NCBI GenBank assembly: GCA_017472685.1
Contig: JAFUOO010000022.1
Span: 77,483 to 141,482 of the forward strand
Direction: 5' to 3'
Source of the DNA: Clostridia bacterium
GTDB lineage: Bacteria > Bacillota > Clostridia > UMGS1883
DNA: 64,000 nucleotides
A program made the position numbers and the translations under genes. Positions 16,055 to 33,762 of the stretch are shown piece by piece. Below the pieces are notes generated by a model. It did no database searches. It was not told the origin of the DNA and worked only from the letters and a program-made list of their open reading frames with translations. Position 1 is the stretch's first letter. Each line of letters starts with the position of its first letter.

Positions 16055-16342
16055 TCAGCGATATAAATTCCTTGCGGAATTTGCGATATTCCCCTTTGGG
16101 GAGCGATATGTTGCAAGCAACGTGATATGTCCTGCGGGACGTTGGGAATTTATATTATATCGAGTTTGTAGGGACCGGCGTCCTCGACGGTCCGAAAAAA
16201 CATATCGAATTTACGAAGTAAATATATCGAGCAAACGAAGTCTGCATATCGACAAACAAGCTGTCTTTTTATATAAAAAGCTTGAAATTCGGGGTTTTGT
16301 GTGCTATAATGGCAAGGATTTGGAAAAAGAAAGGTGAATAAA

Positions 16343-23915: not shown

Positions 23916-24021
23916 AACAATCCTCCCGTCATGCTGAAGCATGCCACCCTCCTTTACACAAGGAGGGCTATCGTGAAGAAAGTTAAGTAGTGGACATTCG
24001 AAAAAAGAAAAGGAGAAAAAT

Positions 24022-25114
24022 TATGTTTAATTATTTAATGCCCACAAAGGTAATTGTAGGCGAAAACTGTGTTAAGGAAAACGCAAGCGAATTAATCTTA
24101 GGCTCAAAATGCATGATTGTAACAGGCAGAACAAGTGGTGCAAAGAGTGGTGCCCTTGGCGATGTAACAGAGGTTTTAAAGGAAAAGGGAATCGAATACC
24201 TTGTGTATGACCATATTGGCAACAACCCCACCATTGAAGAATGCGCAGAGGGTGGAAAGGTAGCCAAGGATTTCGGAGCCGACTTTTTAATAGGCATTGG
24301 CGGTGGCTCGCCCCTTGATGCGTGCAAGGCTATCGCGGTGTATGCCGTTAATGATATGGATATGTATGATATTTTTGAGGGTAAATTTACTAACAAGCCT
24401 CTGCCCATGGCGGCAATCCCCACAACTGCAGGCACAGGCAGCGAAACTACGCCTTATTCCATTTTAACGCTTCACAAAATCAATAACAAGCAGAGCTTTG
24501 CCCACCCGGATGTTTTCTACAAGGTGGCATTCTTAGACGGCAGATACACCGTTAAGTTGCCGCTTCAGATTGCACGCAACACTGCAATTGATGCAATGAG
24601 CCATCTTTTAGAAGGCTTTACGGATAAAAAGGCGAGCATGGCAAGCGACTACATTGCCCTTGAAGGCTTGCGCATTATCGGCAAGTATGTTGACAATTTA
24701 AGAAACGGCAATTTCAACACCCAAATCTGCACCGACCTTTTGTGGGCTGCGAGCTTAGGCGGCATTGTTATCAGCCAGACGGGCACAACAATCGTTCACT
24801 CCATGGGCTATGCCTTAACTTACAACAAGGACATACCTCATGGCATGGCAAACGGGCTTCTATTGGGCGAATACCTTGAACGCACAAAGGCAGTATTGCC
24901 CGAGAAAATTGCTTTGGCAATGAATGCTCTGGGTATGAGCTTAGAGGCTTTTAAAGCCTTTCTTAAAGAGTGCCTGCCCTGCAATGCCCATTTTGACGAG
25001 GAGGAGCTTATAAAATGGAGCGAAACCGCCATCAAGGCTAAAAACGCTATGGTTTGCCCCTTTGATATAACACAGGAGGACGAGATAGAAATTTACAAAA
25101 AGTGTCTTTTATAA
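24022..25114 (+). CDS. iron-containing (group III) alcohol dehydrogenase
   Basis: GGGSPLD, metal-binding His residues and about 365 aa. Ribosome-binding site AAGGAG. Confidence 0.8.
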
Positions 25115-25126
25115 GGAGGAAAAACA

Positions 25127-26377
25127 ATGTCAACTTTACTTTGTTTATTGTACCTTTTGGCAAGTGTGATATTTCTTATTATCCCTAAAACCCGACATAT
25201 CGGCAAAATAATGCTTACAGTCGGAATTGTTGCATTTTCGCCCCTTATGGTGCTGTACGCTTTTATACTTGCGGCGTTTTCTTCGGGAAACATTCTCGTA
25301 CCCATATGCTCGGTTGCATTGTGCGTTTGTTTATCCGTTCTTATTTTAGGCGTAATCTGGGGCTTTATCAAAAACAAAAAGTGTTACATACCTGTTATCT
25401 CGGTGCTTGTTTTAAGCGCAGGAGTACTCGGCGGTATATACGCACACAAGGCGTATATTAATTCCATACCCACAGTGGGCGAGGGCAGAAATGTTTTGTA
25501 CGACTATACCCCTTATGAATACAATTCAAAAACAGCCTCTCTTGAAAAAGAAGCATCCCTTCTTTTAAGCGAGGATTTACCGAAAATGGACGGCGCAACA
25601 GCGCTGTACCCCGTTTATGCAGCTTTTGCAAAGGCGGTTTATCCCAAGGAGGTTTTCTTCGACGAAAACGGTAACGTTGAAAATTATCACAACAACAAAT
25701 ACGTTACCTGCACAACCACAAGTAATGCCTACGGAAAAATTGTAACAGGTGAGGCTGATATTATTTTTGTGGCATCACCCAGCAAGGAGCAGGACCAATT
25801 TGCCCATGAGTGCGGAGTTGAGCTTGTATACACTCCCATCGGGAACGAGGCCTTTGTGTTCTTTGTAAACAGCAAAAACCCCATAGAGGATATTACTCTG
25901 GAGGCTGTGCAGAAAGTATATTCTGGCGAAATAAAAGATTGGAGCGAGCTTGGTGTTGCGTCTTTGGGCAAAATCCGTGCCTTCCAGCGCGAAGAGGGCA
26001 GCGGAAGCCAGTCAACGATTATAAAGCTCATGGCGGGCAAAGCCTTAAAGGAGCCCGAGATGGAAGATGTGGTGGACGGCATGGGCGGAATAATAAGCCG
26101 CACGGCAGATTACAAAAACTACAAAAATGCCATCGGCTATTCCTTCAGGTTTTATTCAACCGAGATGGTCAAGAACAACATGATAAAGCTTCTTAAGATA
26201 AACGGCATTGAGCCTACTCTCGAGAACATTGAAAACGGAACATACCCCATAACAGGCAATTTTTACGCTGTGACAAGAAGCAACATGAGCGAAAACACAA
26301 AAAAGCTTCTGGAATGGATACAGGGCGAGGAAGGACAGAAGCTCATTGAACTTACGGGGTATACGCCACTTAAATAA
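25127..26377 (+). CDS. membrane-anchored PstS-like periplasmic-binding-domain protein (orphan)
   Basis: 3-4 N-terminal transmembrane helices followed by a phosphate-binding-protein-like domain. No adjacent ABC permease genes. Confidence 0.5.
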   Translation: MSTLLCLLYLLASVIFLIIPKTRHIGKIMLTVGIVAFSPLMVLYAFILAAFSSGNILVPICSVALCVCLSVLILGVIWGFIKNKKCYIPVISVLVLSAGVLGGIYAHKAYINSIPTVGEGRNVLYDYTPYEYNSKTASLEKEASLLLSEDLPKMDGATALYPVYAAFAKAVYPKEVFFDENGNVENYHNNKYVTCTTTSNAYGKIVTGEADIIFVASPSKEQDQFAHECGVELVYTPIGNEAFVFFVNSKNPIEDITLEAVQKVYSGEIKDWSELGVASLGKIRAFQREEGSGSQSTIIKLMAGKALKEPEMEDVVDGMGGIISRTADYKNYKNAIGYSFRFYSTEMVKNNMIKLLKINGIEPTLENIENGTYPITGNFYAVTRSNMSENTKKLLEWIQGEEGQKLIELTGYTPLK

Positions 26378-26393: not shown

Positions 26394-27632
26394 ATGGCTT
26401 ACAAAGAGCTTGTAAAAAGCTTTGAAAAAATAAGAATGTATATGCGTGATTTTTATGTTTACGGCTTTAAAACGCGCAATGATTTCAATAAAAAAAGCCT
26501 TCGTAGCTATGATGACGAAAAGCGCAGGATAGAGAGCTATCTGGGAAATTATATGTATTTTGAAAGCTCAAGTGACGGAAAAAGAGTTTTTTTATCAATC
26601 GACAGCAGAGAGGCTGTGCACAATCCGCTTTTTAAGGCATGGAAAGCAAAGAGCTTTACCGACGGTGACATAACACTGCACTTTATATTGTGCGATATTT
26701 TGTCAAAAGGGGTAAGTATGTCACCTGTTGATATTGTAGCAGAGGTTGACAGGTATTTGTCTGTATTTGAAAAGCCTATGACCTTTGACGAGTCCACCGT
26801 AAGAAAAAAGCTGAAGGAATACGAAAAAACAGGTATTGTAGTCAGCGAAAAGCAGTCGCGGAAAACACTCTACCGCATGGCAGAATGTACAGACATTTCC
26901 CATATGACAGATATGCTCAACTTTTTTGCCGAGGCATCTCCGTTAGGTGTTATTGGCTCGTTTTTGCTGGATAAAACACAGGAGAAGAAAACAAGCTTTT
27001 CCTTCAAGCACCATTACATAACCGCCACCATGGATTGTGGGATTTTATACAGGCTCCTTTGCGCAATCCATGAAAGAAAAAGCTGTGAGACACAGATTGT
27101 TTCCGCAAAAACAGGAGCAGAGTATGCCTATAGCATTGTTCCTTTACGAGTGTTGTGGAGCGTGCAATCCGGGCGTTATTATTGCATGGGCTATAACAAT
27201 TTAAGGCATAGAATAGAAACCTACAGGATTGACCACATAACCGATGTAAAGAAAGGGGATGTGAGCCCTGATTTTGACAAGTACCGCACAAGGCTTGCCA
27301 ACATAGAAAAGCACATGTGGGGTGCATCTGTTCCCATAGCTAAGGACAAACTGCAAACGGTATCGTTCACACTTTTTGTAAACGAAGGTGAAGAATACAT
27401 AATAAGGCGTCTTGAGCGAGAAAAAAGGTGTGGCAGCATAGAGCAGGTTGATGAAAATCATTATAAATTTACTGCCACCGTTGCAGATGAATGGGAATTA
27501 ACCCCCTGGATAAGAACATTTATCTGCCGTATAACCAATATAAGCTTTTCTGATAAGGAAAACGAGAAAAGGTTTAAAAATGATATAGCTGCCATGTGTA
27601 CGCTTTACGGTATCGGAGGTGAAAAGGTATGA
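26394..27632 (+). CDS. WYL-domain protein (HTH-WYL-WCX architecture), PafB/C-like
   Basis: The central region (IVPLRVLWSVQSGRYYCMGYN...RIETYRIDHI) resembles a WYL domain. It is translationally coupled to a second WYL gene. Confidence 0.5.
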   Translation: MAYKELVKSFEKIRMYMRDFYVYGFKTRNDFNKKSLRSYDDEKRRIESYLGNYMYFESSSDGKRVFLSIDSREAVHNPLFKAWKAKSFTDGDITLHFILCDILSKGVSMSPVDIVAEVDRYLSVFEKPMTFDESTVRKKLKEYEKTGIVVSEKQSRKTLYRMAECTDISHMTDMLNFFAEASPLGVIGSFLLDKTQEKKTSFSFKHHYITATMDCGILYRLLCAIHERKSCETQIVSAKTGAEYAYSIVPLRVLWSVQSGRYYCMGYNNLRHRIETYRIDHITDVKKGDVSPDFDKYRTRLANIEKHMWGASVPIAKDKLQTVSFTLFVNEGEEYIIRRLEREKRCGSIEQVDENHYKFTATVADEWELTPWIRTFICRITNISFSDKENEKRFKNDIAAMCTLYGIGGEKV

Positions 27633-28531
27633 TGTTTTCCGAGCTTTACGGAGCATACTACAATACTGTTGCAAAGCTTATTGAACATGCCATTGACGGA
27701 AACCTTACACTTGACCTTATGCGTGAAATTATTAACAGCAACGCCTTTTCGGAAAGCGGATGGCTTATTGAGGATGCAATAAAAACAGAGCGTTGGCAGC
27801 TTATTACACAAGACTGGAAAACACCTGTTACGTGTAAGCCTGTAATGCCATTAACCGAGCTTGAAAAGAGCTGGCTTAAGGCAATCAGCCTGGATGAAAG
27901 AGTAAAGCTCTTTGGTGTGGATTTTGGTTTTCTTGAAGGTGTTGAACCGCTTTTTACAAGTGAAGACATAAGAATTTATGACCAATATCTTGACGGAGAT
28001 AATTACTCGGATGCGGGATATATTGAGCGTTTTAAAATAATACTGGAAGCCGTAAAAAAGGGTCTGCCTCTTGAAATTGTAATGCTCAACCGCCGTGGCG
28101 AAGAAATACTCAGATACGTTCAACCAAAAAAGATAGAATATTCACCCAAGGACGATAAGTTCCGTCTTATTGCCAGAGGTCTCAGGAGCTTTGAAACAAT
28201 AAATCTGCAGAAGATTACCTCCTGCAAAATAAAGGACGGCAAGCTCAGATTTGAGCGAAGAACACAAAAAGAGGAGCCCTCCTTTGTAACCTTTGAGCTC
28301 TATGACGAGCGAAAGGCATTGGAGAGAGTGCTTTTGCACTTTGCACATCTTAAAAAGAAAACCGTGCAGACAGGGGACAACACCTATTTGGTAACCATCT
28401 ATTACGATAAGTTCGACGAAACGGAAATCCTGATAAGGATACTGTCCTTCGGGCCTATGATAAAGGTTACGGCACCTGATAAGTTTGTAGAGCTTGTAAA
28501 AGAAAGACTAATTAAACAGCTGGAAATTTGA
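27629..28531 (+). CDS. WYL-domain protein, second member of the tandem pair
   Basis: LEIVMLNRRGEEILRYVQPKKIEYSPKDDKFRLIARG is a WYL-like core. Its start overlaps the upstream stop (ATGA). Confidence 0.5.
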   Translation: MMFSELYGAYYNTVAKLIEHAIDGNLTLDLMREIINSNAFSESGWLIEDAIKTERWQLITQDWKTPVTCKPVMPLTELEKSWLKAISLDERVKLFGVDFGFLEGVEPLFTSEDIRIYDQYLDGDNYSDAGYIERFKIILEAVKKGLPLEIVMLNRRGEEILRYVQPKKIEYSPKDDKFRLIARGLRSFETINLQKITSCKIKDGKLRFERRTQKEEPSFVTFELYDERKALERVLLHFAHLKKKTVQTGDNTYLVTIYYDKFDETEILIRILSFGPMIKVTAPDKFVELVKERLIKQLEI

Positions 28532-28534
28532 AAA

Positions 28535-28564
28535 AGTTGCGAAATGTTTTCGCAACTTTTTTTC
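28535..28564 (+). terminator. rho-independent terminator; also left copy of an approx. 50-bp direct repeat
   Basis: agttgcgaaatgttttcgcaact followed by ttttttt. Confidence 0.75.
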
Positions 28565-28605
28565 CGTGCCAAAATACAAAAAATGGGCTATTATGTAATC
28601 AACAA
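28546..28605. repeat. direct repeat copy A (ttttcgcaactttttttccgtg... aaaata..aaatggg.tatt..gtaat)
   Basis: It shares a 22-nt exact core and about 85% identity over about 55 bp with 31044-31100. Confidence 0.7.
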
Positions 28606-28638: not shown

Positions 28639-28812
28639 ATGAATTTTGTAGCATCTGTTTTAACAGGAGCAAGCCTTGGGAGTATGATGGGGAGCACGGT
28701 TGCAACCATTGGAAAAAAGTCGGTTGATGTGGCTATTGCCATAGGAACACTGGTTGGTGCAGCAATAGGTCTTATTGCTGAAATGGCAGAAACACGAAGA
28801 AAAGAAAGGTAG
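28639..28812 (+). CDS. mini membrane protein with glycine-zipper motif (57 aa)
   Basis: ATG with AAAGGA ribosome-binding site. GxxxGxxxG-type hydrophobic segment. Confidence 0.3.
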   Translation: MNFVASVLTGASLGSMMGSTVATIGKKSVDVAIAIGTLVGAAIGLIAEMAETRRKER

Positions 28813-28820
28813 GATTAACA

Positions 28821-29165
28821 ATGGCTATATACAAACCCGGAAGACCTGTAAAATATAACCTTGGCACAGAAAAAGGTACAAAACCGCCTTCTAAGCCGGG
28901 CGAATACCGGATAAGAGACAACTCTGGGCAGATATCCTATGTGGGCGAAACAAACAACCTTGCCCGCAGGATGTATCAGCACACCAAAAGCGGAAAGCTG
29001 TCTGTGGAGAAGGGTAACAGTACCTTTGAGTATAAGATTGCCGACGGCAGGTCAAGCTCAAGAACAAGGCGTATCCACGAGAAAGAGAAAATAGCAAAGC
29101 ACAATCCTTATCTTAATAAATCAGGCGGAGGAGAAGGCAGGCTTGCAAAAAAGAAAGGTGCATGA
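28821..29165 (+). CDS. small GIY-YIG nuclease-domain protein
   Basis: GEYRIRDNSGQISYVGETNNLARRMYQH fits the GIY-(x10)-YIG...R...H/Q pattern. It has a basic C-terminal tail. Confidence 0.6.
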   Translation: MAIYKPGRPVKYNLGTEKGTKPPSKPGEYRIRDNSGQISYVGETNNLARRMYQHTKSGKLSVEKGNSTFEYKIADGRSSSRTRRIHEKEKIAKHNPYLNKSGGGEGRLAKKKGA

Positions 29166-29208
29166 AAAAAGCAGAAAAGCGAAAGCTTTTCTGCTTTTTT
29201 GTTATATG

Positions 29209-31043: not shown

Positions 31044-31100
31044 TGAGTTTTCGCAACTTTTTTTCCGTGTAAAAATAAATGGGATATTTTAGTATGTAAT
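31044..31100. repeat. direct repeat copy B
   Basis: ttttcgcaactttttttccgtgtaaaaataaatgggatattttagtatgtaat matches 28546-28605. Confidence 0.7.
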
Positions 31101-31453
31101 TGTCGGACGGATGCGGGTGTGTTGCCTCACCCGGGTGCATAAGGTGTACCAAAATGTATGCTTGCCGACAACGCAGGTTCAACTCCTGCCTGTACATGTG
31201 TACAGCCAAGTGGTTTTGGATATCGTCCGAAAGGACTCGCCTTAAAGAAAAAGTCTAAAACGCAATTTCTCCGCCTTCTCTGAACAGAGTTTCGGGCAAT
31301 GAGTAAAGGATTTTGCCAAGCGTGGATACCGTATGCTGTCGCATAATGCCAGAGCACAGCTTCCGCACAATGGGAGAACATACTCAAATTGCTTGCCATC
31401 CCTACTCATGAGAAATTGCAACGATTATTATTACCGAAAGGGGTTTATACATA

Positions 31454-32548
31454 ATGAAAAGAATAACAGTTAAAGAAACACAGAGAGCACTTTTATTTAA
31501 AAACGGAAAATTTGAGGGCGTACTTGAAAGCGGCAGATATTTCGACTCGAAAAACAAGCTGTTTGTAATCTGTTCGATTGACAAGGCGGTGGATACATCC
31601 AACTGTTCTTTGGAGGTTATGCTGAAAAACAACAGCTTCAAGGCTGCCGTTACAACAGTGGAAGTTAAGGATGCACACCTTAAAATGCATTTTGTAAACG
31701 GTAAGTTTACACATGTTCTTTCCTCGGGTAGCTATGCGTTCTGGAACGCAGCAGGTGAGCACACCTTTTGGGAGGTTGACCTGTCCTCTCCCGAGGTTGA
31801 TGCAGGCTTTCCCGAGTATCTTTTCAAAATGATGCCTGCAGCCTACTACGAGAAAATACAGGTTCGGGAATACGAAAAAGCAAGGCTTTATTTTGATAAA
31901 AAATTTGTACGCCTTCTTGACAGCGGTGTTCACTACTTCTGGAAAACAAATGTAGAGGTTGATTATTCGCTGGCAGATACACGCCTTTTGGAAAAGAACA
32001 TTACAGGACAGGAAATGCTCACACGTGACAAGGTCTCTGTAAGGATAAACTGCGTATGCACCTACCGTATTGTAGATTATGTTAAAATAGTAACCGAGGT
32101 TGATGATTACGAGGGTCAGCTTCACACTGCGCTGCAGATGGCACTCCGTGATTTTGTAGGTCGCTACAGACTGGACGAGATCCTTGAAGAAAAGGAAAAA
32201 ATGAGCGAATATGTTCTTGAAAAGCTCAAGGAAAAGGAAGAGGAGCTCTATATTGACGTTAAAAGCGCAGGTGTTAAGGACATTATTCTGCCCGGAGAAA
32301 TCCGCGATATTATGAACACTGTTCTTATTGCGGAGAAAAAGGCACAGGCTAATGTTATATCGCGTCGTGAGGAGGTTGCGTCAACACGCTCACTTCTTAA
32401 TACTGCACGGCTTATGGACGAAAATGAAACACTTTACAAGCTTAAAGAGCTTGAATACATGGAAAGAATATGCGAAAATGTAGGTAATATAAATATTGAC
32501 AACGGAACTAATATAATTGCACAGCTTTCACGTCTGTGCGAAAGGTGA
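31454..32548 (+). CDS. SPFH/band-7 domain protein (no obvious transmembrane anchor)
   Basis: The central region (TRDKVSVRINCVCTYRIVD...AQANVISRREEVASTRSL) is typical of stomatin/prohibitin-like domains. Confidence 0.55.
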   Translation: MKRITVKETQRALLFKNGKFEGVLESGRYFDSKNKLFVICSIDKAVDTSNCSLEVMLKNNSFKAAVTTVEVKDAHLKMHFVNGKFTHVLSSGSYAFWNAAGEHTFWEVDLSSPEVDAGFPEYLFKMMPAAYYEKIQVREYEKARLYFDKKFVRLLDSGVHYFWKTNVEVDYSLADTRLLEKNITGQEMLTRDKVSVRINCVCTYRIVDYVKIVTEVDDYEGQLHTALQMALRDFVGRYRLDEILEEKEKMSEYVLEKLKEKEEELYIDVKSAGVKDIILPGEIRDIMNTVLIAEKKAQANVISRREEVASTRSLLNTARLMDENETLYKLKELEYMERICENVGNINIDNGTNIIAQLSRLCER

Positions 32549-32553
32549 TTAAA

Positions 32554-33762
32554 ATGATTGAAATTAAAGGATTATATAATACTGCACTTTGCTATACGGA
32601 CACTCTTGAGGAAGAGTCGGAAAAGCAGATTGCAAAGTTTTGCGACAGGGAAGAATTCAAGGATTGCCGTATACGCATTATGCCCGACGTACACGCAGGT
32701 AAGGGGTGTACAATAGGCACAACCATGACGCTCATCGATAAGGTTGTGCCTAACATGGTGGGCGTTGACATAGGGTGCGGTATGGAAACTGTTAAGATAG
32801 CCGAAAAGGAAGTTGACTTTGAAAAGCTTGGCAGAATTATAAGAGGGAACATACCCTCGGGGTTTAATGTGCGAAAGTTTTCACACAGGTACAATGATGA
32901 AATCGACCTTAATGAATTAAGGTGCATTGAGTATATTAACAAAGAGCGTGCGGTGCATAGCCTCGGCACACTTGGAGGCGGAAATCACTTTATAGAAATG
33001 GACCGTGACGACGAGGGGAATTTGTACCTTGTTATACATTCGGGCAGCAGGCATTTGGGTGTTGAGGTGGCTGAATATTACCAGGAATCGGGCTTTCGGA
33101 TGCTTTACGGAGGCTTCAGGACGCAGATTGAGGAAACTATAGCGTCTCTTAAGGCATACGGACGTGAAAATGAGATTGAGAGAACAATCAAGGATATACG
33201 CGATAAGATTAAAAAGGTGAGGCATGAACAGGAGTTTGCATATGTAGAGGGCGACCTTTTCGAGGATTATATTCACGATATGAGGATTGTACAGCGCTTT
33301 GCAACCTTGAACCGAAAGGCAATGTGTGATGTTATCTTTCGCGGAATGGGCTTTAACGAGGTTGAAAGCTTTACAACAATTCATAATTATATTGATACTG
33401 ATGAAATGATACTCAGAAAGGGAGCGGTTTCAGCAAAGAAGGGCGAAAGACTTCTGATTCCGATTAATATGCGTGACGGAAGCATTATCTGCACAGGTAA
33501 GGGCAATGAGGAATGGAATTGCTCCGCACCTCACGGTGCAGGCAGGCTTATGAGCCGCAAAGCGGCGTTCAAGGCACTTGATATGGATGAGTATATTGAG
33601 CAGATGAAAAATGTTTACTCCACAAGCGTTGTACCCGATACATTGGATGAGTCACCCATGGCATATAAAAGCATGGAGCATATTATATCGCAGATTGAAC
33701 CTACCTGTGAGATTGAGGCGATTATAAAGCCTGTATATAACTTCAAGGATTCGGGAAGATAG
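32554..33762 (+). CDS. rtcB: RtcB family RNA ligase
   Basis: Metal-binding motifs MPDVHAGKG, GGGNHFIE and HGAGR. An ATG with GAAAGGTG ribosome-binding site lies inside the ORF-track start and overlaps the SPFH gene end. Confidence 0.85.
   Translation: MIEIKGLYNTALCYTDTLEEESEKQIAKFCDREEFKDCRIRIMPDVHAGKGCTIGTTMTLIDKVVPNMVGVDIGCGMETVKIAEKEVDFEKLGRIIRGNIPSGFNVRKFSHRYNDEIDLNELRCIEYINKERAVHSLGTLGGGNHFIEMDRDDEGNLYLVIHSGSRHLGVEVAEYYQESGFRMLYGGFRTQIEETIASLKAYGRENEIERTIKDIRDKIKKVRHEQEFAYVEGDLFEDYIHDMRIVQRFATLNRKAMCDVIFRGMGFNEVESFTTIHNYIDTDEMILRKGAVSAKKGERLLIPINMRDGSIICTGKGNEEWNCSAPHGAGRLMSRKAAFKALDMDEYIEQMKNVYSTSVVPDTLDESPMAYKSMEHIISQIEPTCEIEAIIKPVYNFKDSGR

Follow-up and report, generated by a model that had tools for sequence, protein, structure and literature searches.

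A tandem pair of WYL-domain genes and a conserved 21-nt promoter element associated with RtcB RNA-repair operons in Clostridia

Two adjacent genes for WYL-domain proteins, here named A and B, were analyzed in a stretch of 64,000 nt of DNA from a Clostridia bacterium (NCBI GenBank assembly GCA_017472685.1, contig JAFUOO010000022.1, positions 77,483 to 141,482 of the forward strand), which is referred to as the window. We consider it probable that A and B make up a heteromeric, PafBC-like WYL transcription factor devoted to the regulon of RtcB RNA repair in Clostridia and acting at a 21-nt element located between gene B and the repair operon. This element has the consensus TTCGCA(G/A)CTTTTTTTCCGTGA, with TTCGCAGCTTTTTTTCCGTGA as its 21-nt form. 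The reading builds on observations of four kinds, namely the domain content of the two proteins, their coupling and natural fusions, the linkage of pair, element and repair genes, and the rigid spacing from the element to the -10 box.

Homologues of both proteins were abundant. Searches at E < 1e-3 returned at least 6,419 protein clusters (90% identity) for A and at least 4,792 for B, most of them about 50-55% identical to the proteins of the window, and the few named relatives were WYL-domain proteins from Clostridia, Lachnospiraceae, Mogibacterium and Selenomonadales. Gene order was studied in a sample of 80 genome loci, all from Clostridia-type metagenome-assembled genomes (MAGs) or isolates, in which counts were limited by the ends of MAG contigs; cultured carriers include Faecalimonas umbilicata DSM 103426 (L002) and Blautia sp. 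XA-2221 (L003). A homologue of B was found 3' of A in 78 of the 80 loci, and the two remaining contigs ended there. RtcB followed A-B on the same strand in 37 of the 41 loci having at least 4.5 kb after B, and at least one of RtcB, SPFH/Band-7, the DUF2828+DUF7788 protein and RlaP (PF10127, the 'RNA repair pathway' nucleotidyltransferase) was present in 39 of these 41. The operons were arranged as leader-SPFH-RtcB, with or without RlaP, as leader-DUF2828-RtcB-RlaP, or as RtcB alone or with DUF2828 (which we take to be Ro/TROVE-vWA-like); in 18 of the 80 loci, SPFH was found after the element and before RtcB. Nothing was conserved upstream of A among the genome loci.

The element was found with three mismatches or fewer in 62 of the 80 genome loci, its start usually 2-5 nt past the stop codon of B, and nearly all loci without it ended before or just past this stop. 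Its information content was near maximal over about 23 positions in species whose proteins were only about 50% identical, and the window contained two exact 20-mer matches vs. 0.02 expected by chance. A metagenome scan with the exact 21-mer returned at least 120 contigs; among the matches listed, B stood directly 5' of the element in 83 of the 93 contigs with at least 1 kb upstream, and of the 45 whose downstream sequence reached 3.5 kb or more, 41 carried RNA-repair genes there. At least about 10 metagenome contigs displayed the element before RtcB, DUF2828 or SPFH with no A-B pair nearby. In one locus (L083) the repair operon was divergent from A-B, and the element was on the operon strand, followed after 19 nt by the -10 box, a Y-RNA-like leader and three open reading frames (ORFs) of 498, 400 and 280 amino acids, of which the 400-residue one was RtcB (tblastn) and the others matched DUF2828 and RlaP by size alone. 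In another (L062) the repair operon was convergent, and the element stayed with it in the operon's orientation. Since the element follows the repair operon when this is inverted or unlinked from A-B, it belongs to the repair promoter. A scan of viral contigs yielded two with the element, both carrying A-B and RtcB, and gave no sign of capture of the element by phages.

The element also shares DNA with the end of the A-B unit. A terminator hairpin and T run lie directly 3' of the stop codon of B in the window, and the 3' arm and T run form the 5' part of the 21-nt element. A comparable hairpin, with compensatory changes, was present in 45 of 47 element copies adjacent to B; the first 8 nt of the element are the 3' arm, and the 5' arm consists of the last codons of B, which encode a conserved KQKxCG tail (window positions 28,500-28,531). 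Because these tail codons form the arm that pairs with the element, tail and element constrain each other, and the pairing of the first 8 nt with the last codons of B means that the element DNA also terminates the A-B transcript. The possibility that the element is merely the terminator of B was considered and rejected, as copies without a hairpin (copy 2 of the window, L011 and L083) keep the whole element, and as it also accompanies repair operons that are inverted or unlinked.

Judged from its spacing to the -10 box, the element covers positions -52 to -32, approximately, in a promoter of the sigma-A type. A -10-like hexamer began exactly 19 nt past the element in 70 of 75 copies; it was TAAAAT in 41 of the 75, then TAGAAT, TACAAT and others, and TGn preceded the -10 box in 37. 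The -35 position was fixed as GTGA(A/T)A, and the consensus TTGACA occurred in none of the 75 copies, as is expected if a factor, and not sigma region 4, constrains this position. The region 5' of A usually held a consensus sigma-70 promoter, and no copy of the element that would point to autoregulation was found upstream of A in most loci, the exceptions being L019 and L002. In this respect the pair is closer to PafBC, which is expressed constitutively, than to the autoregulated BrxR and CapW.

These features bear on the sign of regulation. Activation is favored because the best structural matches of the pair, DriD and PafBC (see below), are activators, because A-B is usually served by a separate consensus promoter that lacks the element, and because the -35 hexamer is never consensus. 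It is possible that the same complex acts at the same site as a repressor, with A/B sitting on the -35/UP region of an intrinsically active promoter and leaving it upon ligand binding, in the manner of WYL regulators such as CapW and BrxR. This alternative has to be taken seriously, since the promoter seems reasonably competent alone: the -35-like hexamer matches at 4 of 6 positions, the spacer is of 17 nt, and the frequencies of TAAAAT and TGn are those given above, so that an activator may not be needed. Such competence is compatible with repression and activation alike. Moreover, the element overlaps the -35 region, the classic position of a repressor, and CapW and BrxR are among the structural matches. 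Neither the activator relatives nor the non-consensus -35 hexamer, nor the fact that most loci are not autoregulated, unlike those of BrxR and CapW, is decisive against repression.

Protein A comprises a basic N-terminal region (amino acids 1-100), a winged helix-turn-helix (wHTH) domain (about 105-165), a WYL domain (218-286) and a WCX domain (about 320-400). The Pfam WYL family matched with 26.3 bits vs. a gathering cut-off of 21.8; weak matches were obtained for a PaaX-like winged helix (amino acids 125-164) and for WCX (14.5 bits). Among 20 members of the A family, WYL was detected in all 20, the PaaX-like wHTH in 18 and WCX in 9. Weak ArsR/SmtB matches fell at amino acids 110-182, and a sequence-profile search of the PDB gave only marginal matches to PafB, PafC and SmtB (E 0.1-0.6 for the PafBC similarity). 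When the AlphaFold 2 model of A was searched with Foldseek, DriD was the top match (8.5e-10), followed by PafBC (2e-9), with CapW and BrxR also present, over about 350 columns; the alignments to DriD and PafBC cover the HTH. The most conserved part of A was the extra basic region of about 100 N-terminal residues (window positions 26,394-26,700; net charge +3.3), which contains many invariant Arg, Lys, Tyr and Phe residues, for example in RSYDxExRR and KSFTDGDITLHF. This region had no family match, and the confidence of its AlphaFold 2 model was below about 57.

Protein B consists of an acidic helical N-terminal region, a divergent WYL barrel (about amino acids 148-201) and a WCX domain (about 218-299). 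None of 36 B family members matched Pfam WYL and all 36 matched WCX (best E 2.1e-7), which in the B protein of the window was the sole Pfam match (19.8 bits, under the cut-off of 23.9). The PADLOC WYL model PDLC01652 matched amino acids 132-294 (E 9.8e-9), and the AlphaFold 2 model (pLDDT 85) displayed a five-stranded barrel at amino acids 148-201. Foldseek matched this model to PafC (1.1e-9), PafB (3.9e-9) and DriD (9e-9), plus BrxR and CapW; for A and B together, the alignments to DriD, PafB/PafC, CapW and BrxR spanned about 300-350 columns, and the matches to CapW and BrxR ranged from 1e-7 to 1e-5. The sequence-profile search of the PDB found no match for B, and NCBIfam has no family for A or B. 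The alignment of the A family with the B family by hhalign extended across WYL and WCX (E 2.3e-4, probability 44.6%), so that by sequence the paralogy of A and B appears weak but detectable. The preliminary description, made from the sequence alone, had assigned a WYL-like core to each protein and proposed a profile search for HTH, WYL and WCX domains. For A the core was confirmed with Pfam; profiles and models indicate that the WYL domain of B is real but divergent, being recovered with PADLOC, hhalign, AlphaFold 2 and Foldseek. WCX was found in both families, and an HTH in A and not in B.

No member of the B family (0 of 36) matched any HTH family. The first 125 residues or so of B carry a net charge of -6.6, and the model contains three helices with no wing strands in this part. 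A cryptic copy of the HTH of A was sought by aligning the B N-terminus with both N-terminal modules of A by hhalign, which found nothing, and the idea was dropped. The pair is asymmetric, because only A has a recognizable DNA-binding domain. This speaks against A/B being a simple copy of PafBC with two HTH domains, and B could act off DNA.

The tandem, translationally coupled arrangement noticed in the preliminary description was borne out, with PafB/PafC and DriD as the closest structural relatives, and so was the overlap of the second start with the first stop, an ATGA at which the two genes share 4 nt. The same -4 overlap occurred at 61 of 78 homologous A-B junctions and is therefore not due to chance. 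The ribosome-binding site (RBS) of gene A, GGCGGTGA, is followed after 8 nt by its ATG, and that of gene B, GGAGGTGA, lies within the 3' end of gene A at 27,615-27,622. A search of B against 1.84 billion cluster representatives yielded three proteins in which a linker joins an A-like part to a B-like part, namely P0389 (763 amino acids), P0351 (756) and P0241 (685), the first read from its own sequence and the other two by BLASTP to A. A further candidate, P0322 (726 amino acids), combined a sugar-kinase-like N-terminal part with a partial B; it is a probable artefact and was not counted. PafB-PafC fusions occur naturally in some Actinobacteria, and WCX is the dimerization module in PafBC (PMC6789036). 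Because of the conserved ATGA coupling and the natural A-B fusions, a physical complex is likely, and the two proteins probably form a heteromer, as judged from the arrangement of their genes. It is rather unlikely that a homodimer of A alone is the transcription factor, B being an RNA-binding accessory or modulator (compare WYL1 for Cas13d) that acts on RtcB substrates or the tRNA-like RNA. B has no detectable HTH and its N-terminal region is acidic, and folds of the kinds that WYL (Sm-like) and WCX (ferredoxin-like) adopt are typical of RNA-binding proteins (PMC6789036); nevertheless, coupling and fusions argue for a stoichiometric physical complex, the WCX dimerization module is present in both proteins, and the two HTH domains of PafBC are likewise functionally unequal.

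Two A-B pairs, with the same element, were present on two contigs (L022 and L034) of a single MAG (JAZQKM01), one before a Y-RNA-like leader and the other before SPFH-RtcB. This points to duplicated regulators, between which cross-talk is possible.

PafBC of Actinobacteria (PDB 6SJ9, 7P5X, 9FND) resembles A/B in several respects. Both systems consist of two adjacent paralogous WYL-WCX genes with natural fusions, and PafBC is the best or near-best structural match for both A and B. PafBC acts at a non-palindromic, promoter-proximal element upstream of the -10 box, and the genes are apparently not autoregulated, suggesting constitutive expression. They differ in that B has no detectable HTH and A has its extra conserved basic region of about 100 residues, so that functional wHTH domains in both subunits, as in PafBC proper, were not found. 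The loci studied here are all from Clostridia and without a Pup-proteasome locus, and the linked genes are those of an RtcB RNA-repair operon, not of DNA repair. PafBC has the RecA-NDp promoter, whereas here TTCGCAGCTTTTTTTCCGTGA lies at about -52 to -32 with the -10 box 19 nt later. DriD of Caulobacter (PDB 8TP8, 9PFQ) has the wHTH-WYL-WCX order of A and is an activator bound to single-stranded DNA (ssDNA), activated by its ligand and working with RNA polymerase at the promoter; it is a single-gene homodimer of the DNA-damage response, in contrast to the obligate pair of genes found here in linkage with RNA repair.

Apart from PafBC, no tandem paralogous WYL genes are known to us, and ssDNA is the known ligand of DriD, CapW and PafBC. 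A and B might, on this basis, be a true DNA-damage regulator of the PafBC/DriD type that senses ssDNA and controls a dispersed DNA-repair regulon, of which the RtcB operon is one nearby member, the more so as members of the regulon were sought in local sequence only. We hold this to be improbable, given that the element was found only before RNA-repair units (see the metagenome contigs listed above) or lineage-specific cargo, that there were just two copies in 64 kb, and that no link to recA, lexA or proteasome genes was found in any locus examined. The element is, in addition, presumably unlike the RecA-NDp promoter.

In the mechanism that we propose for the heteromeric regulator of RNA repair, the pair would be made constitutively and in a 1:1 ratio from the ATGA-coupled genes, and would assemble through WCX by analogy with PafBC. 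A would supply the DNA-binding winged helix and B would be its paralogous WYL-WCX partner; the winged helix of A, perhaps together with the basic N-terminal region, would bind the element. In the window, one promoter (P1) would drive the small membrane protein and the GIY-YIG protein described below, and the other (P2) the tRNA-like leader, SPFH and RtcB. The WYL domains would detect RNA damage through a single-stranded nucleic acid, for example fragments of cleaved tRNA or rRNA, and the ligand-bound complex would switch the promoter on, most likely by activation. Damaged RNA is the most plausible signal, given that an RNA ligase system is what the promoter puts out, and there is a published proposal that factors of the WYL and CARF types sense RNAs ending in cyclic phosphates and regulate RNA-repair pathways (PMC9503650).

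A/B would thus be a functional analogue of RtcR, the sigma-54/CARF regulator of Proteobacteria, which senses damaged tRNA (PMC7790460). RtcR is likewise encoded beside the RtcB operon, which it controls (rtcBA of E. coli and Salmonella), and has a domain that senses nucleic-acid fragments (PMC7790460; PMC4012209). The likeness is one of role only, since RtcR is a sigma-54 enhancer-binding CARF protein of unrelated family and mechanism, whereas the promoter here is of the sigma-A type and neither A nor B gave a CARF or AAA+ match in Pfam, NCBIfam or PADLOC, nor any sigma-54 feature in Pfam or NCBIfam.

The leader RNAs of the repair operons were analyzed as well. About 340 nt between P2 and SPFH in the window aligned with 17 other SPFH-type loci and included a T-arm-like hairpin (31,173-31,189). 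Pairing in three helices of the leader, the covarying T-arm-like hairpin among them, reached 97.9%, and in five pairs both sides had changed; slid controls gave at most 59% pairing. The leader of the window had no Rfam match at gathering or permissive thresholds, and ARAGORN called no tRNA in it. A tRNA associated with band-7 (b7a-tRNA) next to RtcB was predicted by Burroughs and Aravind (2016), according to bioRxiv 10.1101/312249, and the leader resembles this predicted tRNA-like RNA. The window unit of tRNA-like leader, SPFH and RtcB appears to correspond to these b7a-tRNA operons, and other loci, with DUF2828, RtcB and RlaP behind Y-RNA-like leaders, to the RtcB operons with Ro/TROVE-like proteins and Y RNA (Burroughs and Aravind, 2016, as cited in the same preprint). 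That work covers the repair module.

An anticodon-like arm was seen in other loci (L012, L018, L034, L072, L077 and others), with 7-nt loops CUGUCAA, CUGUAAA, UUGUGAA and CUGUUAA; the copy in the window is without this arm. The loops read as GUN anticodons (Asp, Tyr, His, Asn), the set of tRNAs that colicin E5-type nucleases cleave. In DUF2828 loci (L001, L002, L003, L027, L043 and L053), Y-RNA-like leaders were located 60-400 nt past the element; they share AAAGGCGCAGACAGCAA ... GCGCCTT and contain stem-loops with loops CUUAAAA, CUGAAAA or CUUUUAA. The L053 leader gave two marginal Rfam tRNA matches (33 bits at L053:8717-8786 and 29.9 bits at L053:8899-8970). As a tentative extension of the mechanism, the WYL domains of A/B may bind cleaved fragments of tRNA type (for example with 2',3'-cyclic phosphate ends), possibly derived from the operon's own tRNA- or Y-RNA-like decoy, and an attack of an anticodon nuclease on the decoy would then switch on RtcB.

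Between the A-B pair and the leader-SPFH-RtcB unit, the window carries an insert bracketed by a 54-nt direct repeat (28,546-28,599 and 31,047-31,100). The repeat-flanked, nuclease-containing insert reported in the preliminary description is therefore real, and holds an ORF for a small transmembrane protein, a GIY-YIG gene and a DUF3825 gene (Table 1). The preliminary description also proposed a check for shared palindromic motifs at the promoters of the insert; the motif shared here is the 21-nt element, in two copies, which is non-palindromic. The flanking repeats are two copies of the promoter element of the regulon and not the usual scars of insertion. We discarded their interpretation as target-site duplications of a mobile insert, as a duplicated promoter is simpler and other loci also carry two copies of the element heading separate units (e.g., L031, L035, L055 and L059). 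The cassette of GIY-YIG and DUF3825 was also present in the closest relative of the window (L081; A 86% and B 92% identical), where the 57-residue ORF is called as a gene too, and in none of the 80 genome loci; a third locus (L082; 58% identical, same upstream genes) has the order A-B-element-RtcB with nothing between. The cassette is best understood as cargo of a particular lineage that has come under the promoter of the regulon. Further lineage-specific cargo of the element promoter are units in which the first gene behind the element encodes an AAA/STAND-like ATPase of about 370-400 amino acids (L046:8258-11095, L035:8217-9398, L031:8217-9443). In L046 a 573-residue protein without family match follows the ATPase.

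The DUF3825 gene has its own sigma-70-like promoter (31,036-31,007, minus strand, by promoter scan), and could be co-regulated divergently because this lies 14 nt from element copy 2. The N-terminal half of the protein (267 amino acids) is unannotated, and DUF3825 is, we assume, linked to the RNA-binding OST-HTH domain.

The distribution of the cassette bears on the suggestion that the pair regulates DNA damage or defence and is tied to the insert, which did not hold up, RtcB being the conserved neighbor. A defence-island regulator of the BrxR/CapW type aimed at the adjacent GIY-YIG/DUF3825 insert is very improbable. Element copy 1 does drive the small transmembrane ORF and the GIY-YIG gene in the window, and PADLOC WYL models annotated as CRISPR-associated signalling matched both A and B; these models are, however, generic for WYL, and the flanking genes had no significant match to any PADLOC defence-system model. 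BrxR and CapW, the repressors of BREX and CBASS, share the wHTH-WYL-WCX fold, but are autoregulated single-gene homodimers upstream of defence operons, whereas a gene pair, mostly with no element 5' of A, is found here.

Besides the competence of the promoter and the lack of an HTH in B, other points weigh against the reading of A/B as a dedicated regulator of RNA repair. Nearby repair genes were missing from two of the 41 loci that had sufficient sequence 3' of B. L051 had A-B with neither the element nor repair genes in its vicinity, and in L046 the element drives the AAA ATPase instead of repair genes. The conservation of the stem arm and T run could partly reflect the role in terminating A-B. 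The AlphaFold 2 model of A is of low confidence (pLDDT 66, and below 50 for amino acids 1-31 and 59-89). The known ligands of WYL domains are mostly ssDNA (structures of DriD, CapW and PafBC), and an RNA ligand is our proposal here; heterodimerization, the binding of A/B to the element, the regulatory sign and the ligand are all derived by comparison with related systems.

In the window, a gene resembling Fe-alcohol dehydrogenases, so labeled from Pfam matches of its L081 and L082 homologues, and a PBP_like_2 gene occupy 23,990-26,377, and a gap of 17 nt separates them from gene A. This leaves no space for a separate promoter 5' of A, and A-B may therefore be co-transcribed with the upstream genes here. 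The same upstream synteny was seen in L082 and, in part, in L081. The mechanical ORF list gives GTG at 32,536 as the start of RtcB, instead of the ATG adopted in Table 1. Elsewhere in the window, a Gut-1 RNA (Rfam RF01706) was found at 16,056-16,133 on the plus strand (52.2 bits vs. a gathering score of 50).

Table 1. Features of the A-B locus and its downstream region, in window coordinates.
Feature	Position	Strand	Basis and remarks
Gene A	26394..27632	+	412 amino acids; ATG 26394, TGA stop 27630-27632; ORF and RBS
Gene B	27629..28531	+	300 amino acids; ATG 27629, stop 28529-28531; ORF
ATGA stop/start overlap of A and B	27629..27632	+	Sequence
Intrinsic terminator of A-B unit	28531..28567	+	Inverted repeat, 14-nt arms, 100% complementary, plus T run
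Element copy 1, TTCGCAACTTTTTTTCCGTGC	28549..28569	+	Candidate A/B operator; about -52 to -32 of P1
P1 -10 hexamer TATTAT	28589..28594	+	Begins 19 nt past element copy 1
57-residue glycine-zipper-like membrane ORF	28639..28812	+	ORF with RBS; weak glycine-zipper/transmembrane profile matches; first gene behind P1
Stand-alone GIY-YIG nuclease-domain protein, 114 amino acids	28821..29165	+	Pfam GIY-YIG 8.2e-8, 32.9 bits vs. 22.6 cut-off; second gene behind P1
Bidirectional terminator hairpin, 16 pairs	29165..29200	.	Terminator scan and inverted repeat; between convergent GIY-YIG and DUF3825 genes
DUF3825-domain protein, 589 amino acids	29209..30978	-	Pfam DUF3825 5.2e-46
Element copy 2, TTCGCAACTTTTTTTCCGTGT	31050..31070	+	In P2 of leader-SPFH-RtcB unit
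P2 -10 hexamer TAGTAT	31090..31095	+	Begins 19 nt past element copy 2
Structured leader / non-coding RNA of SPFH-RtcB unit	31102..31440	+	18-sequence alignment, conserved blocks
SPFH/Band-7 protein, 364 amino acids	31454..32548	+	Pfam Band_7 1.2e-25
RtcB RNA ligase	32554..33762	+	Pfam RtcB 8.9e-59; ATG 32554 after RBS GAAAGGTGA

Protein A is publicly annotated as WYL-class, and what we rate as new is a probable WYL regulator, heteromeric and asymmetric in build, that is devoted to RNA repair. A full-text search for WYL with RtcB or RNA repair, whose coverage did not extend to Burroughs and Aravind (2016), returned general statements only and neither the A/B pair nor the element. We know of no account of how RNA damage is sensed and RtcB repair switched on outside Proteobacteria, and to our knowledge the in vivo ligand of WYL domains, ssDNA or RNA, is still debated. 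The locus offers a compact and widespread test system, with two small proteins, one 21-nt element and a defined output of RtcB and a tRNA-like RNA, and the near-invariant element is usable as a genomic marker of members of the regulon, including the GIY-YIG cassette and the AAA ATPase cargo. The pair, spread over hundreds of Clostridia species, would carry the heteromeric design of PafBC beyond Actinobacteria, in an asymmetric version with the HTH kept in one subunit only. If the tentative reading of A/B as a sensor of RNA damage is true, no WYL transcription factor before it would have been shown to answer to RNA instead of ssDNA, and human-gut Clostridia would widely possess a heteromeric WYL counterpart, dependent on sigma-A, to the RtcR-CARF circuit.

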